From the NCBI GenBank assembly GCA_000091205.1, contig AP006488.2: 64,000 bases of DNA; one strand, 5' to 3'. The position numbers and the translations under genes were made by a program. The DNA comes from Cyanidioschyzon merolae (lineage: Eukaryota). The notes beneath the pieces were generated by a model. The model had not been told where the DNA came from. It did no database searches and saw only the letters and a program-made list of their open reading frames with translations. Shown in pieces: positions 7,880 to 54,303 of the stretch. Within the stretch, counting starts at the first letter, position 1; every line of letters starts with the position of its first letter.

Positions 7880-9605
7880 GGTTATAATCAAAGCACTGAA
7901 TTTTGGAACAGCTGTGCTGGCTCACCTTTTATGTTTTTGTTTGTCTTTCTCTCAGGTCCCTCATAAAAGCAATCCATCCTTTGGGTGCGAGAACGCTCGC
8001 GGAAACACCAAAGGCCCTCACTGCCAGCTTGCGAGCATAACGGCTTCAGTTCTACGAGTGAGTCACTCTGTGGGTTTACCAAGCGAATGAGCTGCACGTC
8101 GCCTGGCCCTGATCCTGGGGCTCGGGAGCCCAAAACAGAACTTATCCAGCGCTACCCCAACGATTGCCTCTTCTTCTGCGCATTCCACTCCATGCGTACG
8201 CTGACAATGACTCCAAAACATGCCGCAGGGTGTCGAGTTTCCACACCCTTCATACGAATGGTGATGAAGAGTCACCGATGGAATACGCAGAAGCACGCGG
8301 CTATGGGAGGCCTTTGCGCGTCGCATACCTGGTCATCGATTCCGTATGGAAACACGAGCTCGTATTCCGCGGGCAACGGACGTTTGCCGCTCTCGATGAG
8401 ACACGTCCAGCTACGGACGCTCGACATGTGGCTAGGTACGCCACGAAGGGCATATTGCCGTCCTACACGACGACACAAGCGAGCATGAAGCCACCATGTG
8501 CTCCAATGGCGACCACATCCATCAGTTGCCACCGAGCCGCCAAACAGACATGTCCCTTCGACACACCTGATCGTTCGTCGACGCACTTTTGGCTTCTTGG
8601 TCCCACTCTCATCTGCCGCGATCTCAGAAGAGATCGCTGTCCAGTACGCGGTAGGTGCCATCGAGTACACACGCGAGGGCGGCGTTGAGCGGCTCGGCGA
8701 TCCTGCATACTGGTTCAGGTTCAGAGCAGTCATAGGCCCCTTGTCGGTTGTCAACCGCCATACAAGCGCTCGCGGATCTATAGACGACGAGTCGTTCGCA
8801 TCCGTGGACCCGAAAGCCGCAGAACGCCTTCAGAGCTCGCGCAGCTTCGTTCCCGGCGGATGCTCGCGCAGCTTCTCTAGCTTTGGTGCACCTCGTCCAG
8901 CAGCAGCTGTTCAGAGCAGCTGCGCATGCAGAGGAGCCAGCTGTGCGCATTCCTCGGGGCGTGCTCGAGCGAGCCTTTCCGAGGCACAGTACAGCTGATG
9001 CTCTGCACAGAGGATACGATACGGCGTGCTCGTGAACTAGCGGAATTGCAAACAAACACATAAACACACTTACTCACATACACATAAACACAAACACACG
9101 TTCTAGCGTACCTTGACCTGCACGCTACCGCATCAGCGAACGCAAGTGCTACAGTATAGGTCCCTGAAGGAATCGAATGAGCACCACTATCCTAGAGCAG
9201 CTGCAGTTCCGCGCTGAGCGCTCCATGAGGCGCACGCTTTTGATGCCGCATCCTACACTCAGTGGCCGAGAAAAGCGTGACTGATGCAGCGGATTCATGG
9301 CGCGTCGATAGAGCTAAACTGCGGAATAGTGGCGGAGACTGCAGTGGCAGCGGACTCGGAAGCGCTGCCCCAACGCCAGCCAGAGTCGCTCTCGCACCGA
9401 GCCGACAAGCTGGCTTTCGCTAGCGCGTTCCGTGAGTCGGAGAACAAAGTGGCCGATCAACTGCGTCGTTTGGAGGGAGCGTACGGCGTGGAGCACGCTA
9501 CAGCGCACAGGCGCTTCTCTCCATTTCGCTTGACACGAGCGTACGTCGAGTGCAGTGATCGGCTCTGCAGGACGCTCACCGACGCGTTCAGCACACCGTA
9601 CGCAC

Positions 9606-9648
<43 letters not shown>

Positions 9649-10145
9649 ACTCACAACGAAACAGGTAGCGTGGACGAGTGTGAAGCAGTGCCGGACGCTC
9701 TAGACGGTGTACGGCAAGCTTGCCGGACGTCCGACGGCGATGCAACTGGACGCGGCAGGCTCTCTGGGGCGTGACCCCCACCCCCCCGGCAGCGACGTAC
9801 TGTAGGGCTCTCTCTCTCCCCGAAACTCGAACGCCAGGCTCAGCGTCTGGAAATATGTCGGGCGTGTGGAGCGTCCAGCGAGTTTGTGCCGAACGAGTTC
9901 GCCAACGAATCCACGAGGTCTCAGTGTGGGCGTTGCGGTGAAACGCGACAGACTACCGATGCAGCACTATCAGAGGCGAGTTGCCAGGAGAGCGTGTCCA
10001 ACGGGTTTCCACCTGGAGTTAGACACCGAAATGGTACGTTTCAGGAAACCAGCGAGTTTGGTGTGTCGTTTATATACACCGGGATCGGTTCTTCTTCGCG
10101 GATACTGAACGATAATGGTTTTCAGCTATTCGATGCTAATGAGTA
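7880..10145 (+). repeat. R1 dispersed repeat, copy 2
   Basis: About 98-99% identical to copies 1 and 3. (CACGAG)n is expanded to about 7 units at 9608-9649. The poly-C tract is one C longer than in copy 1. Confidence 0.85.
9608..9649. repeat. (CACGAG)7 microsatellite inside R1 copy 2
   Basis: Direct reading. Copy number differs between the three R1 copies. Confidence 0.9.
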
Positions 10146-11944: not shown

Positions 11945-13450
11945 CAGACGCCTCTCAGCCTTTTTCGACGCGCCGCCTGCTATCGGTTTCAGGTTATGCA
12001 GACGAGCCTCGACCCTCAGAGTCTTTCCCAAGAAGCTGGATCGTTTCAGATCCTCGGATCTTATCGTCAACACCGCACATCTTCTGATACTGATGGCGGT
12101 GTTGAAGTCTCGATTCAGAAACTCCTTGCGTGCATTACCGTTGGTTGAACACACCGATGCAAGAATTGCTAGAACTCATGCCCTCTGCGATATCATAGTC
12201 TTGTCATCATCGCGTCGCGCACACAATTTTTGTCGACTGTCTCCCTTGTTCTTCGTCTTCTTCGTTACGTGCCCTTCTTTGTTCGATTGTCGGCGGGATG
12301 ACGATTTTTCCGTTTGTTTTCGGCAGCTGGCGATGACGGCCCGCCAGGATCTTGGACTTCCATGTCCTTAACGTGCCCTTGGATATTTTATTTTTCCGAA
12401 TGTACTCGCTCCTGTATGCCCTTAGGTGAGGATCTTCCTGGATGGAATCGATTTTGCGGAAGAAGGATGATACGTGCGTCGGTGTCACCGCCCAGAACGC
12501 TACAGCGATTTGCCCTGTGGAGCGATTATTACATTCCATTACAAAAAAACAGTCAGACGATATGGTAGAACAACAAAAAGTTCTATGCAATGAAAAGCGG
12601 ATCTAGCCCAACAAAATGGGCAAACGCTTGGGCGTAACGAGAATGGTGAAATATCACGTTGTCCAGCAGAAGGACGTCGCCAGGCGTCAGCCAAAATTCT
12701 TCAATGATTCAACGCAGGGTGTGGTATTGTGTAAGCGATCTCTATGAGCGAATTTGAGGCTTCAAGATCAAACCATTCCAACTACCAAAGATGATGGTGT
12801 CGTCGTTCTCTTCCAGTTCGATTGTGTAAACAACGGGTGCCCCGTCCGCGAAAAAGACATGTACGCTCCGAGCGTCTCATCCGAAGCAAGTCCGATCGAC
12901 TGGAAAGAACCTGCGGATGTCGGTGTGCTTCATATCGTCCGCTGAGTTCCAGGAATTCTGCAGCTGAGATTTCAGTGGAAAATGGCCGCGCGTGAAATTC
13001 GGCTCTTTACGACTGTATCCCTGTGTTATCAGGACTACGTGAATCAGCTTGTGGGACAGAGAAACGCCTGTGGCGGCTATTACGGCTGCTTTTGCTTTTG
13101 GTAAGATGACCAACGGGTCGTTGTCTACCATTAACCGCAAGCAGTCTTTAAAAGTATCGGTTTTTGTTGGCACGTGGCACAATTGCTTTCTTTCATTGCT
13201 CCTTAAGTATTAGAGTGCTGTTGTATGACTGATCTGTAGGAGGAATACAGTCCTCCTTGCACTATGCAATAGAGAATATATCCGATAGTCAATTCGTCTA
13301 CGATCTGTACATGACTTTGCGTAGTGATTTCGACCGCTTACTAGAAACTGCGAAAATCCAGGCGGAAACACACAGAGGGACAGGAACCCAATGAAGTTGA
13401 AACTCTTTAATGCAACGGCGCACTTGCGACCGGCAATCTGCCGACAATGC
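11945..13450 (-). mobile_element. Family-1 Fanzor/TnpB-associated element, internally deleted non-autonomous copy D (minus orientation)
   Basis: Minus-strand ORFs 12207-12590 (N-terminal-like, 'KNKISKG...IEQRRARNEEDEEQ') and 11891-12154 ('KEFLNRDFNTAISIRRCAVL...LKPIAGGASKKAERRL') match the ends of the long copy at 20389-22704. The 3' terminus 'GGCTGAGAGGCGTCTG' is the complement of 11945-11960. The 5' region shares the conserved hairpin 13238-13257 with copies A and B. The 5' boundary is approximate, +/-150 bp. Confidence 0.55.
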
Positions 13451-14044: not shown

Positions 14045-14169
14045 TGACTTAGAATGAGGCGAGAAAGGAAACCGTCTAGAAGAGTGTCTCGGTCTCGACA
14101 AGATGCTGGTTCTTGTCAACGGTTGCTTTGGTATCGATTTCCTCAAGGATGTTTCTGTGTGTAATGATC

Positions 14170-16423
14170 GGTTATACTCAAAGCACTGAATTTTGGAACA
14201 GCTGTGCTGGCTCACCTTTTATGTTTTTGTTTGTCTTTCTCTCAGGTCCCTCATAAAAGCAATCCATCCTTTGGGTGCGAGAACGCTCGCGGAAACACCA
14301 AAGGCCCTCACTGCCAGCTTGCGAGCATAAGGGCTTCAGTTCTACGAGTGAGTCACTCTGTGGGTTCACCAAGCGAATGAGCTACACGTCGCCTGGCCCT
14401 GATCCTGGGGCTCGGGAGCCCAAAACAGAACTTATCCAGCGCTACCCCAACGATTGCCTCTTCTTCTGCGCATTCCACTCCATGCGTACGCTGACAATGA
14501 CTCCAAAACATGCGGCAGGGTGTCGAGTTTCCACACCCTTCATACGAATGGTGATGAAGAGTCACCGATGGAATACGCAGAAGCACGCGGCTATGGGAGG
14601 CCTTTGCGCGTCGCATACCTGGTCATCGATTCCGTATGGAAACACGAGCTCGTATTCCGCGGGCAACGGACGTTTGCCGCTCTCGATGAGACACGTCCAG
14701 CTACGGACGCTCGACATGTGGCTAGGTACGCCACGAAGGGCATATTGCCGTCCTACACGACGACACAAGCGAGCATGAAGCCACCATGTGCTCCAGTGGC
14801 GACCACATCCCGCAGTTGCCACCGAGCCGCCAAACAGACATGTCCCTTCGACACACCTGATCGTTCGTCGACGCACTTTTGGCTTCTTGGTCCCACTCTC
14901 ATCTGCCGCGATCTCAGAAGAGATCGCTGTCCAGTACGCCGTAGGTGCCATCGAGTACACACGCGAGGGCGGCGTTGAGCGGCTCGGCGATCCTGCATAC
15001 TGGTTCAGGTTCAGAGCAGTCAAAGGCCCCTTGTCGGTTGTCAACCGCCATACAAGCGCTCGCGGATCTATAGACGACGAGTCGTTCGCATCCGTGGACC
15101 CGAAAGCCGCAGAACGCCTTCAGAGCTCGCGCAGCTTCGTTCCCGGCGGATGCTCGCGCAGCTTCTCTAGCTTTGGTGCACCTCGTCCAGCAGCAGCTGT
15201 TCAGAGCAGCTGCGCATGCAGAGGAGCCAGCTGTGCGCATTCCTCGGGGCGTGCTCGAGCGAGCCTTTCCGAGGCACAGTACAGCTGATGCTCTGCACAG
15301 AGGATGCGATACGGCGTGCTCGTGAACTAGCGGAATTGCAAACAAACACATAAACACGCTTACTCACATACACATAAACACAAACACACATTCTAGCGTA
15401 CCTTGACCTGCACGCTACCGCATCAGCGAACGCAAGTGCTACAGTATAGGTCCCTGAAGGAATCGAATGAGCACCACTATCCTCGAGCAGCTGCAGTTCC
15501 GCGCTGAGCGCTCCATGAGGCGCACGCTTTTGATGCCGCATCCTACACTCAGTGGCCGAGAAAAGCGTGACTGATGCAGCGGATTCATGGCGCGTCGATA
15601 GAGCTAAACTGCGGAATAGTGGCGGAGACTGCACTGGCAGCGGACTCGGAAGCGCTGCCCCAACGCCAGCCAGAGTCGCCCTCGCACCGAGCCGACAAGC
15701 TGGCTTTCGCTAGCGCGTTCCGTGAGTCGGAGAACAAAGTGGCCGATCAACTGCGTCGTTTGGAGGGAGCGTACGGCGTGGAGCACGCTACAGCGCACAG
15801 GCGCTTCTCTCCATTTCGCTTGACACGAGCGTACGTCGAGTGCAGTGATCGGCTCTGCAGGACGCTCACCGACGCGTTCAGCACACCGTACGCACAGCGC
15901 GAGCACGAGCACGAGCACGAGCACGAACTCACAACGAAACAGGTAGCGTGGACGAGTGTGAAGCAGTGCCGGACGCTCTAGACGGTGTACGGCAAGCTTG
16001 CCGGACGTCCGACGGCGATGCAACTGGACGCGGCAGGCTCTCTGGGGCGTGACCCCCACCCCCCCGGCAGCGACGTACTGTAGGGCTCTCACTCTCCCCG
16101 AAACTCGAACGCCAGGCTCAGCGTCTGGAAATATGTCGGGCGTGTGGAGCGTCCAGCGAGTTTGTGCCGAACGAGTTCGCCAACGAATCCACGAGGTCTC
16201 AGTGTGGGCGTTGCGGTGAAACGCGACAGACTACCGATGCAGCACTATCAGAGGCGAGTTGCCAGGAGAGCGAGTCCAACGGGTTTCCGCCTGGAGTTAG
16301 ACACCGAAATGGTACGTTTCAGGAAACCAGCGAGTTTGGTGTGTCGTTTATATACACCGGGATCGGTTCTTCTTCGCGGATACTGAACGATAATGGTTTT
16401 CAGCTATTCGATGCTAATGAGTA
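14170..16423 (+). repeat. R1 dispersed repeat, copy 3
   Basis: Near-identical to copies 1 and 2. It ends 18 bp before the stop codon of the convergent ApaG gene. Confidence 0.85.
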
Positions 16424-16440
16424 CAGCCTCCGTCACTCTT

Positions 16441-19399: not shown

Positions 19400-22300
19400 T
19401 GCCAACGTGGACAAAGATCGATTTGGACGTGCACGCTATCCAGCGGTCTTTGGAGCTTCGCGCACTGTTTCGGGGGTTTTTCTCAATGACAAAACGTTTA
19501 CATTTACCATGGATTTCAGATTGCGGGATGCATCATGGCTTTTAGGTTAGCATCCATCATGAAGCACCTACCACCAAGCTCCATTACCCATACTTCCTCT
19601 CGGATATTCTGGTCGTTTCGCACGCTCCATCGTGTGCCGAGTGCCTGCCGTGAGCACCCGCCATCGCGCTTAGACCGCTGAAGCAGATGCTGCGCGGAGA
19701 CAGAACGGTTTTGCCATACTACTGTGGGCGTCGGCTCGCGGAATCCTGTATCTGATACGCAATCTCGGCGAATTATCATTCTGGGAGCCTGCAAGCTGCG
19801 CAGTCAGAGGCGCTGTTTGCGACAGCGCAAAGCGATGTAGAAGGGTCCACTAGGACCCGGTCGACGCCCCAATGCGGCATACCTTCTACGAGTCCCAGAT
19901 TAAACTGCATTTCGGACGAGTCGCTCAGACCTTGCAGCGGCATATGTCACTTAAGAAACACGTAGCACCAGCCTACCAGACTAGTCCGGCTCGCGGTGCC
20001 TTCTGCCTAGAAGGTAAACTTTAGACAATACGGGAACATTTGTCCCCTTTGAACGTTAATCGTAGAGGAGGAAAAATATATAAAGAGTCGCAGGTGAATC
20101 CAGAGTCTCTGCTTTTTATTCTAAATAGCGCACTCGATACGCGCACATAGGACATCTGACAGTCACCGGATACGACGTCCATGTCGCCGTTGAAGGGAAA
20201 CGCGATCGTGATCAACAGCGTGTTGTACTGCCGGTAAAGTTGGACTTGCGTTAGAGTCATAGCAATGTATAGTTCTTCAATTCAATTTTGTTTCAGCCTT
20301 CAAGTAAGTATATTCAAGTGATTTTTCGCGAGTTCTGGTAGAAGCGTTCCATGAACGTTCTTTTCCAAAAAAATAAAAAAGGAAAGTTATGGAAGAGCAC
20401 GTCGACAATTGTGGAAGCCTGGTGTCGCCGGCTGGCAGAAAAAAACGAAAAACAGAGCCTATCCCGCAGGAACAGGAGAGGACGAAGAAGCGAAGGCAGG
20501 AGGCCCTACGTGGAAGGCTCCAAAAAAGACAACTGTACGACGAGATGGTGGTGAAATCCTGTCTTCGTAAACGTATCAGGGATCCATACAAGGAAAGGTT
20601 GCGAGACGCTATCAGAAACCTTGTCGATTCGTACTCCAAGAAGGATGTAAAGACATCGTCAGGACTAGCGCATTTGGCGAAGGAGATGTACGAAGATGTG
20701 GCGCATATGGAAACAGTCGAGGGTCTGGGCTAGTTCTTCAACATGACCATGATTCGTCGTCTGATGCTTGGTACAGGGGAATCTTCGACGAAAAAAGAGC
20801 TATTGCAAGCCCTCCGCGAAAACTTCGCGGAATTCCACTTCGAGGGTACTCGATACAGGGGTGACCGGGATATTTACACATGCGGGGCGATGAAGTTCAT
20901 CATGAACGTAAAGAACCATTTGACGATGAACCTCGAAAGTTTCATGATGAGCGCCGTGTTTGCGCTATACCTGGGCATCTCTCGCAAAGGAAAATGAGCG
21001 ATTATCAATGGCATCACGAACGATCGCCAGCATGAAAATGAGGTATAATTTGTCGACAAGAGGGCGTCAAAAGAGAGCACGGATGAAGCTTCTGTGATCC
21101 GTGCGGCTATTCAAGAGCACCGTGCAGTCTTAGGGTTGGTGAATCTAGCAGAAAAGATATCAGCGTTGAAAAAAGATAAGGAAAGATACTATCGCCTCGT
21201 CCTGCGCTATTTTGTGTTTCCGGACCGTGAACTCGAACGCAAGGCAGAGATGAAGCTGAGTGAGGAGACAAAAAAAGAGTGGTAGAGACGGAAGGCTTTT
21301 CTAATGGGGAAGCGCTTCAACGTCGTTCCAATGTGCAACATCAAGTCACATTTCGTGACTATCGACTAAAGAATCCTTCACGGCATCATGAAGGAGATGT
21401 GTCCGGAGTTCGATGTTAGCAGGGAGGAGTTCTCCGGTGAAAACCGGGAGACGTACTGGAAGAATATCTTCAGTTTCAAACGTCTGAGAGTGAGCAAGCA
21501 AAAGTTGTTTACTGGGATGATTGAAACCGATGGAGTAGCCTTGTGTATACACTATCGGCGGTTGAAGAGAGATCGTCCAGTTCCCCCCTCGGCGAACCAT
21601 GAAGATGAGAAAGAGGCGGATCTTGCGACGCAGGAGGTAGAGGATAACGACCTCGTCGTTGGCGTGACGAAGGATGAAGATGAGAAGAAGGAGGATCCTG
21701 CGACGCAGGAGATGCAGGATAACGACCTTGTCGTTGGCGCGACGAAGCATGAAGAAAAGAAGTAGGCGTGCCTTGAGACGAAGAAATTGCAGGATAACGA
21801 CTTTGTCGTTGGCGCGGACCCCGGAAACACAAATATCATCACCATCGCAGCACCGAAGCGTGCAGAAGAATGTACTGACGGCAACTTGCGTCCGAAAGAC
21901 ATGCGTCTTTTGAGGTTCTCGAGAGCGAGATACTATCAAGAATCCGGTATAATGAATGCAAGGAAGAAAATCGTTACGTAGAATGCAGGAATGAAGGATC
22001 ACCTGGAAGCTTTGAGCTAGGTGACAAGTCGAGGAGCGGACTTTGAAGCTTTTCGGAAATTCATGGAAGTTCGCATTGCGCATTGGGATGCGCTGTGGGA
22101 GGAGTATACAAAGCCCCGGCGGGCTCGTTTGCGAATGAATTTGTATTGTGGGAAGCAGCGGGCGTTCGCGAACTTTTTCAGTCAGTTGAGTGCCCTCAAA
22201 GAGGATGAAACTCAGCGGCTAGTAGTGGCGTACGGAGCAGGGCGCTAGATGACCCAAAAAGGGACTACGCCAGCTCCAACGACAAGAACATTCAAAGAGT

Positions 22301-22704
22301 GTGCACGGCGTTTTGTTACAATACCGATAGATGAGTTCCGAACGTCCTATACACACCATGAACTGGGATGTACACTTCAGCGAGTGGAGATGGAAAAGTG
22401 TCAGCGGAGCCCTGAGGAAATAGCAAAGTACGGACCACTGACGGAAGAGCAAATGGAAAGGAGGGTGAAAGTTCGTGGACTCCTTGCACTAGTAAGTACA
22501 ACGTCTAATGGCAAGAAACGAACGGAGTTTGTGAACCGTGACTTTAATGCCGCTATCAATATATGCAGATGTGCGGTGCTGGAGAGTAGACCTCCAAGGT
22601 CGACAAGAGTGAACTTTGTTGGACAACCCGTCAAAGTCGAACTATATGAGAATAAATTGGAACCAATAATAGGTGGCCGGTCCAAAAAGGCTGGGAGGCG
22701 TCTG
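19400..22704 (+). mobile_element. Family-1 near-full-length Fanzor/TnpB-bearing element (copy E): about 0.9-kb 5' 'F' region plus a 2.3-kb nuclease pseudogene
   Basis: The 5' part (about 19400-20300) is homologous to 54320-55100 and 46500-46760. The body is one reading frame from 20389 encoding NLS-like 'RKKRKTEP...KKRRQE', RuvC-I '[15 protein letters not shown]', 'IDEFRTS...C', RuvC-III 'EFVNRDFNAAINI' and 'LEPIIGGRSKKAGRRL'. The terminus is at 'GGCTGGGAGGCGTCTG' (22689-22704), where all five family-1 copies diverge into unrelated flank. The 5' boundary is uncertain. Confidence 0.55.
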
Positions 22705-22842
22705 CACATCAGCTGGAGAGTTCTTCTCCAGGGCCCCGGTCGCCACTACTGTACACTGCTGCCGGTAGCAACAAGTAGCAAAAGTTCAACCGACGAGTCC
22801 ACGGATGGATACTCGGCCAAAAGGTTCAGGTCACCGTTTTAG
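20389..22842 (+). pseudogene. Fanzor/TnpB-like RuvC nuclease (OrfB_Zn_ribbon-type) pseudogene
   Basis: One continuous frame; all seven ORF-track pieces start at coordinates congruent to 1 mod 3. It is interrupted by 10 in-frame stops (TAG at 20731, 21283, 21763, 21979, 22018, 22246; TGA at 20995; TAA at 21046, 21367) with no frameshift. The open frame continues 138 nt past the element terminus to TAG at 22840. Confidence 0.7.
21615..21830 (+). repeat. Internal about 72-bp x2.5 tandem duplication inside the nuclease ORF
   Basis: The repeated peptide 'KEDPATQE(V/M)(E/Q)DNDLVVG(V/A)TK(D/H)E(D/E)(E)KK' sits immediately upstream of RuvC-I '[16 protein letters not shown]' and duplicates its lead-in. 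Confidence 0.8.
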
Positions 22843-24389: not shown

Positions 24390-25776
24390 TGTTTCTGGTC
24401 CACTCCCTCTGAGTCCAGTCGAATGCGTTCTCGCGGTGAAGAGCAAGCGACCGAAATCACTCTAGGATGTACGTTATAGATCGGAGACGAATTGCTTACG
24501 GGATATGTATGCTTTACTGAGTAGTGCAAGGGGGACAGCACCCCCCGCCCTGCGGCTCATTCGTATCGCAGTTCTCAGATGGTCGGGGGTCATTGAAAGA
24601 AACAAGTAGATGCTCTCAGCGCCAAGAGCTGATACTCTCCAAAGAGCTCTCGGTCTATGGTAGAAAACGACCCATTGATTAGCTTACGGAACGCAGAAGC
24701 GACGATAGTAGTCGCTGTGGGCGTCTCTGTTTCTCAACAGCTTGTTCAATGGTCCTGAAAACACCGGGATACAGTAGCAAAAAACTTTCCACTTCAGTCA
24801 CGACAATATTCCACGGCATTCGCTACTACAATCGAATTCCTGTAACGTCGCGATCTGTATGAAGCACAGGACGTTGATTTGTATTTTCAGCCGATGGGAC
24901 TTCCGTCGGACGAGAAGGTCGTGGGAAATATGGCCATTCGCGGAGCAGGGAGCTCGTTGTATTTAACATCGAATCTGGGGAGAAAGATGACATCATTATC
25001 TGTTCTGATTGCAATGGATTCATTCGACGGCGTCATTTCCACTCGCAGAGCAGGCGCATACAACAGCACCAATCACTTCGTCGAACCACTGAAGACTTTT
25101 TCCCTGAAGTCTGGCGAAGACCCTCTGCTGCACAACGTTGTAATTCACCATTCCGGTTGCGTTCGAGCTTTTGCTGATTCAATCGGGCTAGAGCTGCGTT
25201 TCATTCCATTGTACGCAACGTTGTTTTACCCCATCAAAGGACTGTTTTCTATTGTGAATCGTAATGATCGCTCCACTAGGCGAATCGCTGAAGCGTTCGA
25301 CACACGGTGACACAACGGGGCACATTTCGTCTTTCTTCAGCACGTCCTTCTCCCTCCGGGGAGGTCTCCACCCATGGGTATACACAAGTAGGTTCATTTA
25401 AAAAAATAAAAAATCCAAGGGAGAGTCATGGGCATGGAAGTCGAGGATCCTTGAGGAGCTTTGTTGCCGGCTTCGAAAAAACAAGGAACAAAAATCCTCT
25501 TCTCGCCAACCATCGAGAGAAGAAGAACAAGTGAAGAAGAGGAAGAAGAGGGAGACAGGCAAGAAAATGTGTTTGCTCGACCGTACGACAACGAGATTTC
25601 AGTGGCAGAGAGGGTATGCGTTCTAGGAATCCTCGCATTGATGAGTTCCACCAGCTGCAGTAACCGAGGAATTGACGAGATACGATTTTGTGGAGCAGCC
25701 TCTCAGGCACGAGGTGTGCCTTGATAACCTGGAACCGATAGCGGGCTGCTAGTCAAAGAGGGCTGGGAGGCGTCCG
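24390..25776 (+). mobile_element. Family-1 internally deleted non-autonomous copy A
   Basis: It shares about 700 bp of 5' 'L' region with copies B, C and D: hairpin 24530-24546 and the conserved block 25254-25330 'GTGAATCGTAATGATCGCTCCACT.GGCGAATCGCTGAAGCGTTC...'. It has an N-terminal-like segment ('NKNPLLANHREKKNK...EEEEEEG') fused to the 3' tail '...LEPIAGC*SKRAGRRP' and terminates at 'GGCTGGGAGGCGTC' (25761-25774). The 5' boundary is approximate. Confidence 0.55.
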
Positions 25777-27052
25777 TGACTGGGATTATAAATGCGCTCT
25801 ATTGTTGCGAAACGTTTTCGTGTCACTGACGATACAAGAAATTCGCAATTTCCAGTGCTTCGATGACTGCGTTGTGTATTTGGCAAGCTGCTGCTTGTCA
25901 GTTCCACGCGTTTACTTCTGAAGCGATCGTTGCGTCAGCTGCGAATCCCGTTGAACACATTTTTTGTGCTGCTGAGAACATGTCGCTCCTAAAAAGGAAA
26001 CTTGTTTTCGTTCTTGAGGAACTCCGAACCCAGCGGAGCCAAAAGTTTCCTACCGCCATTCATGTCGAATAAGCCTAAAAAACAGACGACTTCGGTACGG
26101 GTGCCAAGGAGCGGATACCCTTACCGATTTGATCAGACTCGACTACCTGACGCATACGTCGAAGAATGCAGTCAGCCTGCACAGTTCAACTCGGGGACGG
26201 CGAAGGGTTCCGAGGCGTCAGCGCCTCTCCATCGGTTAGCACACAACAGGGGACCTCTCTATCAATTCCAGCATTTATGAGCGATCTCAGAATCAGCGCA
26301 TCAATTCCATTTCGAGACTGAGCGAGAGCGGCAGTAAACCGTTCTTGAGTCGCCCCATTTCGCCAAAATCGCATGCTTGCGCATGCGCGCGAAGCCCTGA
26401 AAAGACAGTACCGAAACTCACGCTCGTCTGTTCCATTGGGCCGTATGAACACGTTATTGAGAAACCGCTAGATAGCAGGATTTTCTGCACCATAAAGCAA
26501 AACAAGTTTTTTCATTAAATAGCCAGTACGCTCACTCGTTCTACGGGTCACTGCGTAGCGCCTGCCCCCGGCGATGCACGGGTGCCGCTGCGCCCGATGC
26601 GCGTGCAGCATCGGGCGCAGCAGGCACGCATTGAGGATAGAAATGTCCATTGTATAGTTATGTCCCTAATTTTTATACCCGCGCCTCGTTACCGCGCGAC
26701 GCCGGTATTTCGAAATCGGAGGCATCGACTCGGTACGCTGAGAGCTTGACGTGTGCTGAGTCGGGGCGACGACGTTTCCGAGAGTATTCACTTTTCCGCG
26801 TTGTAATCAGCTTGCTTCCTATTGCTTACGTGGCAGTTGGGTGTCAAGTTGGAGCCCTTTGCCGTCGGGCCTGGAGAAGAGGTTCGTTTTCCGAACAGGA
26901 ATTCTGTCTTAAAGAATATGCTTCTATAAAACCGGCACAGCGCAAGTAGCGACTCTTTCTGTGGGTGAACTCTGGTACACGCACACGATTCCAAGTTCGC
27001 CTTGCGAGGTTGATGTTCTGAGAGATCCAACGGTGAACTCTTCTGAGCAAGT

Positions 27053-29769: not shown

Positions 29770-31253
29770 GTTGCTCAGGCAGCAGAGCGCCCGGGACTGT
29801 GAACCTAATCTTGTGTTTCAACTTGATTTTGTTTCATCCGCACTGTGGTGTATAGAAGGAGACAGAAACCACGATGCAATGTATCGCATATATTGTAGAC
29901 GAATGCCTGTGGGATATACTCTGTACTGAACAGTACAGGGAGGACTGCATTCCTCCTTCAGGTCAGTCATGCCGTCGTACGCAGATGGTTGCGGAACACT
30001 GCAAGAACAACGTATATGCGGTCTGCGCTAAAAACCCCATATTTTAGAAGACTTCTTGCCGTCAATGAAAGGAACCGAACCGTTGATCACCGTACGGAAC
30101 GCAGAAGCGACGAAAGTAGTCGCCACGGGCATCTCTTTTTCTCAACAGCTTGTTCGAGTCGTCCGGAAAACACTGGGATACGGTCGCGAAAAATGTTCTA
30201 GTCGAATCACGAACACTTTCTACCAAAATAGCGACGACAGCGTTCATAGAACGTCACAATCCGTGTAAAGCCGAGGGAGGTCGGTTTGTATCTTCAGTCG
30301 ATGAGACTTTATTCTGACGAAACCGTCGAAGCGTACAGGGGTATTCGAGGTGAAGGATCCCGTTGTACGTACGCTTGAACTCGAATAGAACGAGGACATT
30401 ATCTGTTCTAGCTTTAGTGGATATGTTTGGTGGCCTCAGTTTCGCTCGTAGAGAAGGCGCATAGAATAGCACCAATTTTGCCGAATCATTGAAGGCTTTT
30501 CCCCAGACGTCTGGCGACTTCCTTTAGCTGGACAACATGGCATTTCCCCCTTTCGGTTACGTTCAAGCTTTTGCACATCGTATCGGGCTAGAGCTGCTTT
30601 TCATTACTTAGTAATTTCCGTTGTTTTACCGCATCGGAGGAGTCTTTTCCATCGTGAATCGTAATGATCGCTCCACTGGGCGAATCGCTGAACCGTTCAG
30701 CACACAGTGAAACAACGGGGCACATGTCGCCTCTCTTCCGCAAGTCCATCTCACTCCAGGAAGGTCCTGACCCAGGAACATAAACAAGTGCGTTCGTTTG
30801 AAGCAACAGAGATCCAAGGGAAAGGTATGGGCGTACAAGTTGAGGATCCTGGTGTACCGTCATTGCCAGGTTCTCCAAAACAACGAAGAAAATCATCTTC
30901 TCGCCGATAATCGAGCGATGGAGAGCAACGCACGACGAAGAGGAGGATGACAATGAGTAAGGCGAGAAGAGGTGTTTACCCCACAGGACGACAACGAGAC
31001 TGTAGTGGCGTATAGGGCACGAGTTCGAGGAATCCCGGCAAAGATGAGTTTCACCATCGCCGGTAAATGCAGGGAATACGTAAATCGAGAATTCAACGCT
31101 GCTATAAGCACCAGACGATGTGCGATGCTGAAGAATAGACCTGAGGCGCTGACATGATCTAATTTTGTAGGGCAGCCTCTCAGGGTCGAAGTGCACAAGG
31201 AGCGGCTGACGCCGATAGCAGGATACCGGTCGAAACAAACTGGGAGGCGTCTG
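29770..31253 (+). mobile_element. Family-1 internally deleted non-autonomous copy B
   Basis: 5' L region with the perfect palindrome 'CTGTACTGAACAGTACAG' (29921-29938) and hairpin GGAGGA-ctgcat-TCCTCC (29939-29956). Conserved block 30654-30730. ORF 30972-31157 '...QDDNETVVAYRARVRGI...KCREYVNREFNAAISTRRCAML'. Terminus 'TGGGAGGCGTCTG' at 31241-31253. The 5' boundary is at or before 29770. Confidence 0.55.
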
Positions 31254-35183: not shown

Positions 35184-38100
35184 GCCCAAGTTCGACGAAA
35201 ATCCATAGCAGGCGCGTGGGCTGTGCGTTGCGACCAGCGAAAGCACGCGCTTCTGTGTTCGAGTTTGTTTGTTTGTTTGTGTGTCGCATGCAGCGGTATA
35301 CAAGGCATCAGATGCCTCGATACTCGTGATGGCACTGAGATCGGCCTGGACGGCGACTCTGGAGCGGATCTGGTGCTTCCGCGGGGCCGCGTCGCTTCCC
35401 GGGGATCTGACCAAGGATGCGGCGCTTCGCAAATGCTTCATCGGATGCACTAGTTCGATGCCACGGTCGCGCAGCTTACGCATGCGTGTGCCCAGATACC
35501 AAAGCGCGTCTTCAGAACGAGCTTGCGACGCGTTTCATGCAAACGCAAGGCGCTCTTGTTGTGAGCGCGCTCGTGTCATGGACTGCATAATCGAGACTAA
35601 CAGATGTGATGGCTTGAAGCGCTTGGTTGGACGTCGTCGGTCGTGCGCCCTGGCGGTGATACCCGAGCCCCTCCTGTTTATCCAGCATGAACGCGCGCCA
35701 CTTTTCCATGCGTACCTGCCCCGCGCGCTTGCTTGGGTAGTTGCGCCAAACCGCGCGTCGACCTGTCATAGTCACCAGGAGCGTCGTGAACGAGCTTGCC
35801 CTGGGCGCAACGCTTCCGGGCGTGCAGCGGCATCCCACGAGGTTACCCTGGAGACGATCTCGCGACGACCGGTTGCCTTTGGTAAGCACCGGGTACTTTT
35901 CTCGATAGCGAACCACTGAGGACCGGACTCATGTTGTACAATAATGTCTTCTAAAGCGAAAGAATCTTAATCCGATGCCAAAATCGCACGCAACTCACAG
36001 ATGCAGCTATGTGTGGTGCATCCTTGCAGTTCCACCGCGATCGCCAGCATCGACACTGGAACACCCGGGCGAGCTCCGTAGCGATCAGTTTTCAGGTTCC
36101 AGGGCAGCAGGGACGAGCTCGTGACGTCTCGGGCAAGCCTTCCGTTGCTGGCGGTACACTAGCGGTTACCGGATTGCGTCAAGACTCGAAGGTGATGCGA
36201 TGAACGCACACCCTGTGTTGGGCCCGTGGGATTGAGTCCACTGGGAGCTGGAAGGCTTTGAATGGGAGCCTCAAGGTTCCCGGGGTATTGGAAGCCCGCC
36301 AGCGAACTACCCTGCGGGTGCACCGGTGCCCATGGGCGGCTCCAAGCTTCCCTGGATGCAGGGACACGGCAGCGTGCATTGCTGTTGTTGAGCCTGGCTC
36401 GAGAGACTCGGGCGGGTATGCACGCTTGAACGTAGCCAAGGCGACATTGGGATTTTCGTACCTTCGAGCTGCGGCAACTCTTTGAAGATTTACGTTATGT
36501 AAACTGCACTAATGCCAGAATAAACTGGAACTGGTGGTCTCATTCAGGAGTACACCCTAGCGTACGAGTCGCTTTCCGTTGTTAAGAAAACTAGTCTCTA
36601 CGGGCTTTGAAGGCGACTGCTTCATGCTCCTCCTACTTATCTCCGGCCTGAAATACGCCAGTTTATGCTGTCCGTCCATCGATGTTGATGGCATCGTTAA
36701 AGTCACGATTTTGCTTCCTCTAGACACTGTTCACGCATATCATGGACAGGTGGAAGTTGCGATCGACGATTCGCTTACCGTGCTCATCAGCTTCGTTTGC
36801 AATCTCGCTGCGCGCTTCGCAGCGTTGACACTGAACGGGGTTTTGAGGTTCCCATTAGTCTATGGCATGTTCTGGCCCGAGTGGCGCCCTGTGGCACGTA
36901 GACTAATGGGAACCGTCTTGGACACACGCTGTCCTAGTACAGCAGGCTACCCGCCATGAACTCCTCGGTTCGCGCGCCCGTTGCCGAACCCTACGATCAC
37001 GGCGTCTTCTGGGCGGTCTTCTCAGCGAGTACTCTGTCTGCTGCGCGAGGACGCAAATGCTGTCGTGCTCTTCGATAGGGGATTTCTGGAACGCGATGTT
37101 CTTTATGGTTGAACAAGAACCGGGAGGAGAATCCAGGTTCAGAACAATTCGAGAAATTACAATCTGTCTGCGCTTCCGTTGTGCAAAGCAGTGACGTATT
37201 TTCGATTCCACACGGTCGCTGCGATGACACGAGTCCGACTCCAAAACCCTTTGCGATGGGAGCGGTAGAGACGGCACCCGCTGGTAGCACATCCGGTGTG
37301 CAGGAACGTGCTGGTGACGAATCCCGCGTAGTCGATGTTCACTGAGAGGGAGGGTTTTGTGTTTCGGACAGATTTGACTATTATTCGGCGTGAAATGTTC
37401 AGTGTACAAGTCTGCTCGAGCAAGTGCGTCGAGATTCTTTTATCTTCAATGCAAGGACGCCAATCGATGCGCCTATGAGGTGCCTTGAAACAGAACTAGT
37501 GAAAACTCGTAGAATGCGTGATTTGAGCGTGCTATAAGTTCGGAATGGCAGGATTCAGAGGCTCGAACGCGTGAACCGGATAATGAAAGTGGCTATTTTA
37601 GGAACCGTTATTGGAGAACGTTGCGAATTATCTTGATTTCGGTGATGTAACACATGCCAGCTACAAAGCGGCGACGTAGCCACTCCAAAGAAACGACTGA
37701 GAATCCTCATGCAATACGTGAATCGATTCGCTTTTCCGCTTGCACTGCAAATGTTTGGCGTGTGTGCAGTTCGCAAAGCTCTGAACTATCGATATACTGC
37801 AGCTGGGCGAGCAGTCCAGTGTTCTATTTTAATTTGGCTGAATCTGAACGGCAACAAAGTGTCGGCATGGAGGTTGCCCCAGCTCTCTGCGACGCCTATT
37901 CGGATGTTGGAACAACGTCCTAGATTCGTGATTCGCCCCAAGGGTCGCTTGATTGCGTTTACACTTCACGGACGAACTCGGAAACAGCGATAGAGATCGT
38001 CAACGACCTGCTACCCGGAAGCCTTCTGGCGAGTTCACTGCCTTGACTATACCTGCAACAACTGGCAGCGAGCGCTACACAGTTCGATACTCGGATCCTG

Positions 38101-39226: not shown

Positions 39227-40720
39227 AAGCTGCGTATCCCGTGACGGTGATCGGTATTCGCTACCTTGAAGAGTCGAGACCTCTCAGAAGACATGAAGCA
39301 GCGTTACGTTTCGATGGAATCAGCGGTGCCTGCTGCATTTTCTGACGGATGGCGCTCATCGGCTCATACCTGCGAATCCGCCTCGAGTTTTCGTGGGCTT
39401 GTGTATACGTTTGTGCACGCTGCATATCAGATAGCGACTTGAGGGCTTCCAGAGGCTGAAGTAGCGTAGCCGAGTAGAGGCTCATGGCTAGGATAGAACG
39501 TGTACGTCGTCAAAAAATATTCCACTGGGGCTGCCCTGTCCAGTGTGTGTACCCGCTTTTCACGGCGGACTGTGAGCGTACCGGGGCCAGCGCAACGACG
39601 TTCATAGCACCCGAGCTTTGCCATATTTCAGCACCAACAGTTTCATACTCGTTTCGCGAGGATACCCGAAATATGCGGGCTTTGATCAGGCTTCTCTGTC
39701 GCCGGCAACCTGGATGAAATGATTACGTTTTGCGACCTGTGCAGCCGAACGACATCCTTGCTGGGAACATTGGCAGCGAGTACCGTTCAGGGGCAAAGCG
39801 CTATACTCCGGAAACTGCATTGACATTTCCATACTTTCTAAATGAGAGCATACTCGGTATCCGTGATGAGAATGTGCGGCTACCACATGCGGCGGCCTGC
39901 ACCGATGCGTGCGTCGGATCGAACATTGTTTTTGGCGCTTTGAAAAGCGACTTGAGGTTGCACCACGGCTTGTGTCTCTTTCGGAACTCATGAGAAGCAT
40001 ATGTACTCCACGTGAATATCTGCATTCATTCACGTCGCGACGGCGCGTATTTTCACTGACGTTAGAAACGGATCGCCATGGTCGAGACGATCATTGTGTG
40101 TATACGTTCTGTTGGCGCTCACGGGTTCTCCATTTGCCACGCTGCTTCACCAGGGACGACGCAGACCAAACTTATGTACAAGCAGCGTGCTCCACTGTGG
40201 TTCCGTTGTTGCACAAGCCGTTCCAGTGACTTTTTGGCCGTCTTTCGAGCAAATGATCTGTTACTTTCATCGTTGAAGCGCCGAAGCCGATGAGCACGGT
40301 GGGGTCCACGCAGACAGCGCAGCCGCTGTGGAGTGCGAGAACGCAAGATGCGGCGAATAAGAGGTTCCACTTCAAGCCATAAATTGACCCCTATTTGCAA
40401 GTTTTCTGAGTCTTGGCAAATATCGGGAAAAGCCGCACCATGCATGCGGCTTTCTACCGGTGCGCAGCAGGCGCGAAGAAACTGTTGTATGGCCCAGACG
40501 ACCCCGATTGCTACATGAGTAGCTTTTTGGCGTGAGCTGACTTCAAGACGAAACGTCATCATTGGGGTGCTGCAGAAACGTGCAGTATGCGACGTGCATC
40601 GACGACACGCCCTGGTGCCGGAAAACACACCATGCCGCTACCGAGTTGAGAGATGCAGGGCAGCCTCAGACGAAGTTGGCAGGTGCGGGACCCGAATACC
40701 TGTAGCTGCTAATCTCTGCA

Positions 40721-42159
40721 CCAGTGTAAGCACAATATGGGAGAGACCCTTTTCTGCTGGCGTACACGCTAACGTTTGGGTCGCGTCCCACGCTGATCGA
40801 CACCAGCCTTTGTTCGCGTTTTCTACCACCGCCTCCTTTTGCTCGCTTTTAGCTCCAGCGTGAACTACGACGGTCTCAACTGTCCCGCCAGCTCCACTTT
40901 CAGGAGTCGAAGCATGTCGATGGCAGCGTTCAGGTCGCGGTTGCGCTGCCTCCGGCTGGTGTCAAGGCTCCGCCAGCACCGGCAAAAAAGGTCGCGATCG
41001 ACGCCTCGCTTGCCACCTTCGTGTTCTTTGAATGGAGCCACGAAGCGGCCCGGCACAGCGGTGACACTTGGCACTGGTCAGAGGCTCGAGCGTATTCACC
41101 ACACCCTGTGAGCCGCGGACGACCCTGTAGCGCGTCAGGGCTCGCTTCATCGCTCGGTAAACGCTCTACCTGGAACAGAAGCGTCCTATCAATACGATTC
41201 TCGGTCTCAACGACTGGTGCACTGTCCTAGAAGCACGGGATTCTCGCCGACGATACCCTGGGCGGGGGCTTTGCCCGCTGCACACACACACACACACACA
41301 TACGTACATCCATCCATCCATACATACATACATACGCACACACAGCATCGTGTGCAGTTCCATTCCATTGAGGGCTGTGGAGCGCGAGTTCTGCATAAGA
41401 TGGAACAATTGCCTTGACGAACTTGCTGGCTCTAGATCGAGTAGAGATACTGCGATCTGTCGAGGCTTCCTGCGACCAAGGCGGTGACACTTGTGGTACC
41501 ACAGGCGATCGCCGCGGTAATCGAGTCCCAAGTCGAGCATTCTTTTCCAAACAAACAGAAGAGACAGTGCTTCTCGGGGCTTGGTAACGAAGCGGTAGCA
41601 TACTGCTGCCGAATGCCGCCTCGATCCTGGTCACAGAGACCCGAGGATTCGTCTCCCGCACGGAATGGATTCCATGACGCCAGGAGTCCAGTGAACTCTC
41701 TGTGTGTGAGCTTGCGAACAGGTCGTCCGAGCACGACATACACTTCTCTCCATCTCCATCGGCCTGCCGGGCGCATATTGCTGCACCCAAGCGTTGCCTC
41801 AATATAGAACGATCGAAAACTTGAGGTATGCACGGCGTGAGCGTGCTGCTCACTCGCAAACGAGAGGACTGGCGGCTTGTACGCGTGCAACGGATGCTCA
41901 TTGCAATGTTTCCGTATGAACCGCTGTACGAGTGTATCGCGAAGCATCCTGACTCTGGTAGCGTGACGAATTCGGGCGGGACAGCGTCGAGGAAGCCGCA
42001 CCAAAACGTCGACCGATGATCCTGAAACGACGCATGAATCCATCATACGTTGTTGGTGCACCTCGAATGTCGAGCGTGTTCGTGTACCAAGAAAACGCTG
42101 GAGACAATATCCAGCGGCATCGACAGAACAAACAGTTCAGCGTTCCAGTTTGAGATCCG
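40721..42159 (-). mobile_element. Family-2 element (R2), copy X, carrying a degenerate TnpB/Fanzor-like gene on the minus strand
   Basis: Minus-strand frames give 'NTLEPLTSAKCHRCAGP' (TSxxCxxCG zinc-ribbon motif) and, after a frameshift, 'RRQRNRDLNAAIDMLRLL' (RuvC-III). It also contains (CA)n and (CATC/CATA)n at 41279-41345. It is about 97% identical to 49752-51202. Boundaries are where the two copies diverge. Confidence 0.7.
41279..41345. repeat. (CA)n plus (CATC/CATA)n compound microsatellite inside R2
   Basis: Direct reading. The homologous tract in copy Y (about 50310-50378) differs in length. Confidence 0.9.
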
Positions 42160-42485
42160 GAACGGATGTAGACCGTGGCTCCCCATGTAACCAAATCGAA
42201 CGTCTTGAACGTCGTGAATTTCGCAAGAACGACTAGTGGAGCTCCCCGAGCTATCCGTTCAGGATCAGTTGCGGAAACTGGGGACGCTCCTAGCTGAGTG
42301 CATTCTGACGGTCTTCAGGAGCGGGGGGTCGCACACGAGCAAACCACCCACGTAGCAGGTCGTCGGAGTTTCACGCCCCGTTCCAAGGCCAGCAGTTAGA
42401 ACCTGGTTGCCGTAAACTGGGCCAGTCGGTTTGGGGCCTGGGGGTCGTTGCAGGCTTTCGCTTGCGAAGACGTTGCGGCCTCGTC

Positions 42486-46499: not shown

Positions 46500-46760
46500 G
46501 TTTTATTCAGTACGCGGTGAGTTATCCATCAAACCCCCTACTCCCAAGTTATATGACCTATGCTTCTTCTCGGATATTCAGGTCGTTTCGCACGTCCTAT
46601 CGTGTGTGCCTAGTGCCTGCCGAAAGCGACAGCAATAGCGCCTATAGCGCCGGTGCGGTCGCTGCACCGAGACAGAATGGCGTTGCCGTACCACAAAGGG
46701 CGTCGGCTCGAGGCTGCGACCGATAATACCGGCAGCAGCGCCCGCTGCAATCGATGCATC
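46500..46760 (+). repeat. Partial copy (F3) of the 5' 'F' region of the family-1 long element
   Basis: 'CTTCTTCTCGGATATTCAGGTCGTTTCGCACGTCCTATCGTGTGTGCCTAGTGCCTGCC...GAGACAGAATGGCGTTGCCGTACCACAAAGGGCGTCGGCTCGAGG' aligns with 19586-19740 and 54480-54600. Confidence 0.4.
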
Positions 46761-49608: not shown

Positions 49609-49751
49609 GGTTCAGCAGGGTAGGCTCGCTACCAGAGCGACTTGAGCTCACCAGAGCAGCGCATAATAGCATCTCCGTCGGATGCTCGACATGCTATAAA
49701 CAGAGGCAGGATCATTTACGATACCGCTTGTTCGTAAACCGGAATGGATGC

Positions 49752-51202: not shown

Positions 51203-51335
51203 AAGATGCTCTCCGATGGAGCTCTTGTCAAATGTAACCTGCCTTTCCACGCGAATGACTGAGCGTCGGGGCCTCTCAACGATGATTCTTTCACAAAATC
51301 TGCCACTCCTAGTAAACCTTACCCGAATTTACAGG

Positions 51336-53632: not shown

Positions 53633-54303
53633 TTTGTACAAAAGTATAACAAAGATCCCTTAGCGGCGATGCGACTTTCTCATGGCGGGTATCGACGTCG
53701 TACCATATTAACCATTATTGGTCTAAAAAGTACAACAAAGGTCCCTTAGCGGCGATGCGACTTTCTCATGGCGGGTATCGACGTCGTACCATATTAACCA
53801 TTATTGGTCTAAAAAGTACAACAAAGATCCCTTAGCGGCGATGCGACTTTCTCATGGCGGGTATCGACGTCGTACCATATTAACCATTATTGGTCTAAAA
53901 AGTACAACAAAGGTCCCTTAGCGGCGATGCGACTTTCTCATGGCGGGTATCGACGTCGTACCATATTAACCATTATTGGTCTAAAAAGTACAACAAAGGT
54001 CCCTTAGCGGCGATGCGACTTTCTCATGGCGGGTATCGACGTCGTACCATATTAGCCATTATTGGTCTAAAAAGTACAACAAAGGTCCCTTAGCGGCGAT
54101 GCGACTTTCTCATGGCGGGTATCGACGTCGTACCATATTAGCCATTATTGGTCTAAAAAGTACAACAAAGATCCCTTAGCGGCGATGCGACTTTCTCATG
54201 GCGGGTATCGACGTCGTACCATATTAACCATTATTGGTCTAAAAAGTACAACAAAGATCCCTTAGCGGCGATGCGACTTTCTCATGGCGGGTATCGACGT
54301 CGT
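53633..54303. repeat. 86-bp tandem array, about 8 units
   Basis: The unit 'CCCTTAGCGGCGATGCGACTTTCTCATGGCGGGTATCGACGTCGTACCATATTAACCATTATTGGTCTAAAAAGTACAACAAAG(A/G)T' starts at 53657, 53743, 53829, 53915, 54001, 54087, 54173 and 54259. Unit variants are A/G and TTAACC/TTAGCC. The array abuts the 5' end of the F2 repeat. Confidence 0.9.

Follow-up and report, generated by a model that had tools for sequence, protein, structure and literature searches.

A hairpin module downstream of the nuclease coding end as candidate guide-RNA scaffold of CMe-1A Fanzor elements in Cyanidioschyzon merolae

In eukaryotes, TnpB and Cas12 have their counterparts in the Fanzor nucleases, which are under development as compact genome editors. 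Before a new family of these nucleases can be tested, the scaffold of its guide RNA and the ends of the transposon encoding it have to be defined. A locus of Cyanidioschyzon merolae raises this question. Within the 64,000-nucleotide stretch of DNA that was analysed here (termed the window), a degenerate nuclease gene (copy E) shares its last codons with four further repeats (copies A–D). An earlier note on this DNA had proposed that all five copies end at a common terminus at position 22704, and that the 165 nucleotides preceding it (22540–22704), besides encoding the C-terminus of the protein, harbour the scaffold of a guide RNA (ωRNA) whose guide is read from the adjacent flank. We thus became interested in where the reading frame and the element terminate, and where such an RNA would be encoded. 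All coordinates refer to the plus strand of the window unless stated otherwise.

The host is identified by three open reading frames of the window that exactly match the C. merolae 10D proteins BAM79506.1, BAM79507.1 and BAM79513.1. A protein search with copy E returned 35 homologues, all originating from JGI metagenomes, the close ones being 70–79% identical to its Fanzor1 protein. A scan of metagenomes identified 352 relatives, from which 80 loci were taken, among them the locus of copy E in a near-identical strain (L003, 99% identical). Searches of Pfam with the translation of copy E and of the PDB with the single sequence P0001 in phmmer gave nothing useful, and solved Fanzor1 structures were reached by the family profile only, which matches the structure of SpuFz1 from Spizellomyces punctatus (8GKH) with E = 9.3e-14 over 365 positions and that of GtFz1 from Guillardia theta (9CER) with E = 0.012. 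The former match bears out the assignment of the gene to TnpB/Fanzor-type nucleases in the earlier note. The C-terminal zinc-ribbon/TNB domain PF07282 is detected in the distant homologue P0033 (26.9 bits at a cut-off of 26.3), whereas P0001, with 12.1 bits, is found below this cut-off; the CMe copies do not contain the four-cysteine pattern and read HHELGCTLQRVEMEKCQR. One Fanzor1 family described in C. merolae is CMe-1A (Bao and Jurka, 2013; PMC3627910), with about 150 copies that are each about 80% identical to a consensus of about 3 kb. The family carries no terminal inverted repeats, its 5' 635 bp constitute a separate element termed TE-N2_CMe, and its ends and target-site duplications were left undetermined at the time (PMC3627910). 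The family of copy E fits this description with respect to copy number, identity, length and the presence of a TE-N2 head, and copy E is thus a dead member of the published family. In the tail region, the CMe-1A relatives show copy identities of 77–87%.

The Fanzor1 pseudogene of copy E extends from 20389 to 22728 and its translation is interrupted by nine in-frame stops; intact relatives are found outside of the window, one example being the ORF of 772 codons in locus L019. Despite its decay, copy E has retained an N-terminal nuclear localization signal (RKKRK, 20437–20451) and the three RuvC motifs (RuvC-I, GADPGNTN, 21805–21834; RuvC-II, IDEFRTS, 22327–22347; RuvC-III, NRDFNAAINI, 22534–22563), with the respective Asp, Glu and Asp residues in correct order and all three kept in the homologues. 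The tail flagged in the earlier note starts at the Asp codon of RuvC-III at 22540, is in frame with the long interrupted reading frame starting at 20389 and covers the last 55 codons that are conserved in the nuclease (DFNAAINI...GRRL), with the final residue of the peptide ...VGQPVKVELYENKLEPIIGGRSKKAGRRL being encoded up to 22704. When compared to 44 other non-redundant copies, this interval displays the periodicity of a coding sequence, with identities of 0.911, 0.911 and 0.853 at codon positions 1, 2 and 3 (p = 0.0013 for the lower value at position 3). Its synonymous sites are only marginally better conserved than those in the 750 nucleotides of the ORF upstream (0.853 vs 0.824, p = 0.059), and the excess at third positions is mostly confined to the last four codons, which constitute the junction motif described below. 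Structure analysis across more copies, which the earlier note had suggested for the tail, gave a negative result. The fold energy of the last 150 nucleotides carries no signal in copy E (z = –0.39), L052 (–0.48), L009 (+0.25) and the intact L019 (+0.99), or in copies A, B, C and D (–0.06, –0.53, –0.23 and –1.16), and RNAalifold did not find a covarying helix over 22540–22704 in an alignment of 47 tails. Since codon identity is periodic and neither a fold signal nor covariation is detected, the flagged interval, which comprises the C-terminal end of the nuclease, has the character of normal coding sequence, here in a dead copy.

According to the earlier note, the nuclease ORF has no stop inside the element and reads through into the flank, with a different C-terminal tail in each copy. 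For the family as a whole this does not apply, as the position corresponding to 22729–22731 contains a stop codon in 45 of 72 distinct copies (TAG in 33 and TAA in 12). The canonical stop is embedded in GTCTAGG, 25–27 nucleotides past the junction motif, and the protein ends with ...GRRLHVSWRRFV. Locus L003 has TAG at this ancestral stop position, whereas copy E has CAG, and the read-through into the flank is a TAG-to-CAG lesion of copy E alone.

We then turn to the proposed terminus. In the five-copy alignment, the best-conserved window of 12 nucleotides is GGGAGGCGTCTG (22693–22704), with a mean pairwise identity of 0.85 compared to 0.45–0.69 in the rest of the tail and 0.3–0.5 after the motif, and not even the catalytic RuvC-III codons reach this level. 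The 12-mer is exact in copies E and B and the terminal 18-mer in E only, with one mismatch in D, two in A and more in B and C. In the family, third codon positions at the motif are 0.84–0.95 identical, compared to an ORF average of 0.82. For the relatives of copy E, homology continues beyond this point: 73 of 88 blastn alignments of its tail with related loci extend at least 45 nucleotides past 22704, column conservation in 68 distinct tails persists for about 90 nucleotides before it drops to the level of the flank, and copy E itself matches the family up to 22764–22771. With homology in more copies thus continuing for about 90–100 nucleotides, the shared end is not a terminus for the E family. 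Instead, three things meet at GGAGGCGTCTG, which are the end of the 1.4-kb family to which copies A–D belong, the start of a conserved module and the start of a solo, ORF-less copy of this module, which begins at GGAAGCGTCTG and is preceded by unrelated sequence. Latter was found at loci L038, L064 and L080, which we considered as separate ghost repeat copies, an interpretation that was rejected since the three loci are orthologous, each lying next to a POR-like gene in one of three lineages, and therefore count as a single event. The raised third-position identity begins at about 22693, and the covariance model of the module introduced below begins at 22695. Hence, GGGAGGCGTCTG constitutes a junction, while the Fanzor transposon has its right end further downstream. 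Mechanisms that may have produced this junction are processing or nicking at this site, end bypass and recombination at the motif.

For copies A–D, the situation is different. Copy A, a Fanzor-less repeat of about 1.4 kb, is located at 24435–25776, copy B at 29853–31253 (with an approximate start), copy C, where the motif reads GAAGCGTCTC and ends at 63890, at 62498–63890, and copy D on the minus strand at 11945–13331. In tblastn, their C-terminal tails end at 25773/25776 in A, 31253 in B, about 63890 in C and 11945 (minus strand) in D, with 44–56% amino-acid identity to copy E. The four copies are pairwise 65–71% identical over 1.2 kb of non-coding sequence, all six blastn alignments among them terminate within +1 to –21 of the motif, and a fifth copy of the family in L009 has the same end point. 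Beyond it, the 100-nucleotide flanks of A–D show no significant similarity to each other, and a search for the downstream module after these copies gave no match in nhmmer and no significant Smith-Waterman scores against shuffled sequences. A pattern of the type CCACT...ACAC-hairpin-GTG noticed by hand after copy B is not claimed, given that the covariance model scores this flank with just 6.4 bits (E = 3.2), and neither do we rely on HMM matches to an N-terminal Fanzor remnant in A and D, which are weak (E = 0.02–3). The common terminus proposed in the earlier note therefore holds for A–D, whose mutual homology stops there, but not for the E family. The common coding tail is detected in all five copies by tblastn, but A–D share with E no more than its last ~136–190 nucleotides and are therefore not simple deletion derivatives of E. 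Copies A–D are an old, separate family of 1.4-kb repeats, in which the C-terminal coding region of a Fanzor persists as a fossil and which end exactly at the junction motif.

The conserved and structured non-coding sequence of the element is located downstream of the flagged tail, where it extends from GAGGCGTCTG to a covarying hairpin. Its consensus is GAGGCGTCTG CACGTCAGTTGGAGACnnnnTGTCTAGGGCGGGTTTCTCGCCACTACTGTA CAC-(hairpin)-GTG, and past the junction it encompasses eight codons and the ancestral stop, one or several small hairpins, a 16-mer CGCCACTACTGTACAC and a terminal hairpin. In copy E, this module of about 100 nucleotides, a candidate for ωRNA scaffold and right end, is truncated (22695–22771), and its terminal hairpin has no 3' arm. 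The non-coding 16-mer (22741–22756) is near-invariant, with column identities of 0.89–0.98 in 44 other copies, and its final CAC forms the base of the terminal hairpin; over the interval 22705–22756, identity amounts to 0.855 and shows no codon periodicity. The terminal hairpin comprises 35–55 nucleotides and is directly followed by unrelated flank. In the minimum-energy folds of 28 of 46 copies, the closing pair of the hairpin involves the first, second or third base of CAC, and at least five consecutive closing pairs of the CAC...GTG type are found in about half of the copies (21/47). Its arms occur in different versions, including CGTCGTTCGA/TCGAACGGCG, CAACGTTTTTC/GAAAGGCGTTTG and CCGGCGAGCACGCGC/GCGCGTGCTCGCCGG, and its base in the variants CACCG/TGGTG, CACGC/GCGTG and CACCGC/GCGGTG.

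RNAalifold, applied to a MAFFT alignment of the 47 tails, missed the terminal hairpin because its arms are misaligned, and it was thus replaced by folds of individual sequences and by a covariance model of the 102-nucleotide module built from six canonical copies, with which 96 matches are obtained across related loci totalling 615 kb. In the alignment of these matches, which is fitted to the model and whose counts thus lean towards structure, 85.9% of the cells pair compared to 80.1% in shuffles, both sides have changed in 23 of 29 pairs with 12.1 expected, and the covariation score amounts to 0.167 compared to 0.102 in shuffles and 0.035–0.053 in slid controls. In this alignment, the inner terminal helix covaries in all ten of its pairs. 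For hairpins H1 and H2 in the module, covariation is low or absent, and an alternative helix GCGTCT/AGACG was discarded as observed and shuffled values are equal. The module folds better in the sense than in the antisense direction (mean energies of –18.7 and –13.7 kcal/mol, Wilcoxon p = 2.7e-7), an asymmetry that results from G·U pairs, which account for 135 of 731 pairs in the folds. Five related copies were folded, with z-scores between –3.5 and –4.3 in four of them and of –1.5 in the divergent L020. For the module of copy E, the z-score is 0.01, its homology in nhmmer covers 22705–22764 and the covariance model assigns 37.7 bits (E about 3e-9), the lowest score among tail modules located immediately behind a main Fanzor copy. 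With nine stops in its ORF and a module without the 3' arm of the hairpin, copy E cannot work. No relevant Rfam family was found with the whole window at gathering thresholds or with an intact tail searched up to E = 10, and no tRNAs were found. Downstream of the module of copy E, the translocator gene BAM79507.1 has its start codon at 22805.

At its opposite side, the Fanzor core of copy E is directly preceded by a TE-N2_CMe-like head of about 650 bp (19478–20128). Homology in related loci starts either at about 19478, including this head, or at about 20130 with the core only, which matches the published statement on the 5' 635 bp of the family (PMC3627910); solo copies of TE-N2 are located in the window at 54344–54910 and 46524–46713. 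The left end of the core (20129–20146) contains a GC-rich hairpin, which reads CGCACTCGATACGCGCAC in E and CGCGCTCAgTGAGCGC in the family consensus, with variant forms of GCGCTCAnTGAGCGC occurring. All 5' alignments meet at this end, upstream of which at least four unrelated classes of sequence are found, and the boundary is fixed by an inverted TE-N2 head that adjoins it in L060 and L079. The element can be written with CGCGCTCAGTGAGCG... as left and ...CAC-hairpin-GTG as right end. The left-end flanks contain a hint of CA(T/G) in about five of seven distinct contexts, and a target-adjacent motif (TAM) of this type would be predicted. On the right side, the 36 distinct flanks after ...GGTG have no motif in common, as would be the case for any transposon boundary.

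How could these features relate to a guide RNA? From characterized systems, one would expect the guide RNA to be encoded at the 3' end (PMC10432273, PMC10530073), with ORF-less ghost loci supplying functional ωRNAs in case of SpuFz1 (Saito et al., 2023; PMC10432273) and guide RNAs bound by other Fanzors originating from the 3' non-coding region that abuts the right end (PMC10530073). A 3' module of the ωRNA type is thus likely for CMe-1A, as the earlier note had anticipated for the kind of system and its arrangement, although not for the interval or the end of the element, since the flagged 165 nucleotides are of coding type and the candidate module begins at the supposed terminus and lies downstream of it. 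By precedent of the characterized Fanzor and TnpB systems, this module would most likely be the ωRNA scaffold of CMe-1A, with the guide starting after ...GGTG. In such a mechanism, transcription of the module would take place along with that of the nuclease mRNA or after it, its RNA would be bound by the Fanzor protein and the 15–20 nucleotides of flank following ...GGTG would serve as guide. The same terminal hairpin may also act as right-end transposition signal, and together with the GC-rich hairpin CGCGCTCAgTGAGCGC at the left end it could provide single-strand signals as found in IS200/IS605 elements. We consider it somewhat probable that copy E is a dead CMe-1A element in which 22540–22704 is the end of the coding region and the ~100-nucleotide module downstream is the ωRNA scaffold. 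Several observations count against this explanation. A terminal hairpin on one strand would also be expected of a signal in single-stranded DNA transposition, A–D were amplified without the module, which is consequently not needed by every element with a coding tail, the solo module represents a single independent event, H1 and H2 hardly covary and Rfam offers no family match.

These reservations lead to alternative explanations, of which the one closest to the earlier note would place the scaffold in the last ~165 nucleotides overlapping the C-terminus of the nuclease, with elements ending at ...GCGTCTG and the guide following directly, at least in the parent lineage of A–D. A precedent exists in ISDra2-type TnpB, where scaffold and ORF overlap at the 3' end of the latter. 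Such a location would be in line with the five copies of the 1.4-kb family that end at the motif and continue into unrelated flanks, with the amplification of a family that has kept little of the Fanzor ORF beyond its ~136–190-nucleotide tail, and with a motif that is more conserved than coding requires. Yet fold energies in the tail of every copy (z between –1.16 and +0.99) are without signal, no covarying helix is found, synonymous sites are just marginally above those upstream, the downstream module is present in every Fanzor-encoding copy examined, and retention of the tail in A–D reflects one ancestral deletion instead of four independent ones. We thus regard a scaffold within the tail as unlikely, and the arrangement proposed in the earlier note finds no positive support in the elements A–D, which truly end at the motif. 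Even less credible is the assumption that there is no special site at all and that the similarity of the five copies fades where coding constraint ends and neutral decay takes over. The stop codon is located only eight codons past the motif, and A–D are as distant from E as they are from one another (57–70% identity), both of which would be compatible with gradual decay, but A–D are 65–71% identical over their 1.2 kb of non-coding sequence and still stop at the motif in six of six pairs, the conservation of the motif exceeds that of the catalytic RuvC-III codons, and the solo module starts at the same point, which together leave very little probability for this explanation.

A different possibility concerns the role of the module, which together with its terminal hairpin might act exclusively as DNA-level transposition signal, equivalent to the right end of an IS200/IS605 or rolling-circle element, with no guide RNA involved. 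The location of one hairpin exactly at the right end and of a GC hairpin at the left end, the lack of terminal inverted repeats and of a determined target-site duplication (PMC3627910), and the alternative 5' heads and nested 3' ends (GCGTCTG and ...GTG), which resemble variants generated by end bypass, would all be compatible with this role, and the strand asymmetry would suit folded top-strand DNA as well as RNA. Conversely, G·U pairs, which RNA readily accommodates whereas their G·T equivalents in DNA are weak, make up 18% of all pairs, no HUH/Y1 transposase was noticed in passing in the window or the loci, and conservation starts about 60 nucleotides upstream of the hairpin inside the end of the ORF, which is the place of the ωRNA in characterized Fanzor systems. 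As both roles coexist in IS200/IS605 elements, a DNA signal would also not be exclusive of an ωRNA. An exclusive function in transposition is thus rather improbable, and we retain the assignment of the module as candidate ωRNA scaffold as the preferred explanation. In a wider and decidedly speculative interpretation, CMe-1A could be a Fanzor1 with an IS200/IS605-style layout, containing hairpins at both ends without inverted repeats or target duplications and a portable cassette of about 100 nucleotides that combines ωRNA and right end, whose 5' edge GGAGGCGTCTG is a hot spot of recombination or cleavage. Such a hot spot would explain the end of the 1.4-kb family, the start of the solo cassette and the interchangeable 5' heads.

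For a family whose boundaries were left open in 2013, both ends of the element are now defined, the natural stop is placed and a candidate scaffold is located at GAGGCGTCTG...CGCCACTACTGTACAC-hairpin-GTG. The host is a genetically tractable hot-spring alga living in acidic water, which makes a thermotolerant Fanzor plausible, and intact copies of CMe-1A, if still active, would constitute the Fanzor system of a thermoacidophilic alga.

Among known systems, the termini of Helitrons and related rolling-circle elements share with CMe-1A a 3' hairpin marking the end, variable 5' regions and the possibility of nested 3' ends arising by end bypass. However, CMe-1A is devoid of the CTRR end, the A/T insertion site and the Rep/helicase gene of Helitrons, and its hairpin is located at the very end, whereas the Helitron hairpin is found 10–12 nucleotides upstream. 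The resemblance extends further in case of the ωRNA (reRNA) of ISDra2 and other IS200/IS605 TnpB systems, where the nuclease gene equally contains the scaffold at its 3' end, from where it continues into the right end, the guide is derived from the flank, and subterminal hairpins occur in the absence of inverted repeats and target-site duplications. With hairpins at both ends and no inverted repeats (latter as reported in PMC3627910), CMe-1A shows features of IS200/IS605-like elements. These systems are bacterial and have a Y1 TnpA transposase as partner, and the ISDra2 TnpB scaffold overlaps more than 100 nucleotides of the ORF, compared to a supported overlap of only about 12 codons in CMe-1A. 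The SpuFz1 elements (PMC10432273) differ by inverted repeats of 30 nucleotides, which are absent in CMe-1A, whose module overlaps the last 8–12 codons and ends in a long hairpin. On the other hand, the protein families are related (8GKH, E = 9e-14), and the elements have in common a conserved non-coding module of about 75–100 nucleotides between the region of the stop codon and the right end with variable sequence following next, the existence of ORF-less copies of the module and a CA dinucleotide that often precedes the left end. The agreement with the published CMe-1A (PMC3627910) comprises the organism, a Fanzor1 ORF of about 750–770 residues, copies of about 80% identity, an optional 5' head of about 635–650 bp corresponding to TE-N2 and the lack of terminal inverted repeats. 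That paper predates the discovery of RNA guidance, and the right-end hairpin, the 16-mer, the position of the stop, the left-end hairpin and the 1.4-kb family ending at GGAGGCGTCTG are not described in it. Thus, while the CMe-1A family was described in 2013 and the principle of RNA guidance became known in 2023, the candidate scaffold, the position of the stop codon, both ends of the element and the nested 1.4-kb family are new.

Copy E, a dead Fanzor1 (CMe-1A) transposon copy, lies on the same strand as BAM79507.1, a gene encoding a phosphate/PEP-translocator-like protein, whose ATG at 22805 is located 34 nt downstream of the truncated 3' end of the element (22771). The read-through ORF of the copy extends to 22842 and overlaps with the start of the gene, whose 5' region may therefore be supplied in part by the dead element. 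Within the Fanzor ORF of the same copy, a 75-bp tandem repeat (21590-21816) encodes acidic units, whose number varies among family members, as illustrated by the homologous proteins P0001 and P0007.

The 3' module, the conserved hairpin-bearing stretch at the end of the Fanzor ORF, is also found as an ORF-less solo version in related metagenome loci (L038:1235-1339, L064:924-1035 and L080:1517-1611; also L014:1-86). This solo module begins at GGAAGCGTCTG, is adjoined by a protochlorophyllide-reductase-like ORF and constitutes a single locus kept across three algal lineages. The covariance model also gave marginal matches (E-values of 0.045 and 0.33) on the two strands of 26521-26687 in the window, where a palindrome that is long, perfect and rich in GC (GCTGCGCCCGATGC...GCATCGGGCGCAGC) bears no relation to the Fanzor tail.

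Further remnants were identified in a 1.46-kb repeat, whose two copies (40717-42172 and 49749-51206) share 98.7% identity and both contain the RuvC-III-like sequence NRDLNAAIDM (minus strand; 40892-40942 in the first copy, 49923-49973 in the second). This repeat probably represents a second Fanzor/TnpB-like family. A weak Fanzor-like C-terminal fragment with the sequence NRDFNDAINI is located at 36681-36833 on the minus strand (tblastn E = 0.07). Three copies of a 2.26-kb repeat (543-2792, 7880-10145 and 14168-16424), with no obvious conserved ORF in any of them, are at 98.3-98.8% identity much younger than the Fanzor copies. Tandem repetition with a period of 86 bp and about 98% identity is found at 53640-54303, immediately 5' of a solo copy (54344-54910) resembling the published element TE-N2.

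The 1.4-kb family, which comprises the Fanzor-less copies A-D, has a left end of its own (approximately TTCAACTT..., at 29853-29900, 24435, 62498 and, on the minus strand, 13331) that is unrelated to that of the Fanzor core, and neither an inverted repeat nor a target duplication was evident at the ends of its four copies in the window. The Fanzor core opens at its left end with a GC hairpin, found at 20129-20146 and in L060, L079 and other loci. This end is abutted by TE-N2-like elements in both orientations, suggesting a common insertion preference. Directly 5' of it, CA(T/G) is found in about five of seven distinct contexts, which recalls the CA dinucleotide and the CATA TAM of SpuFz1.
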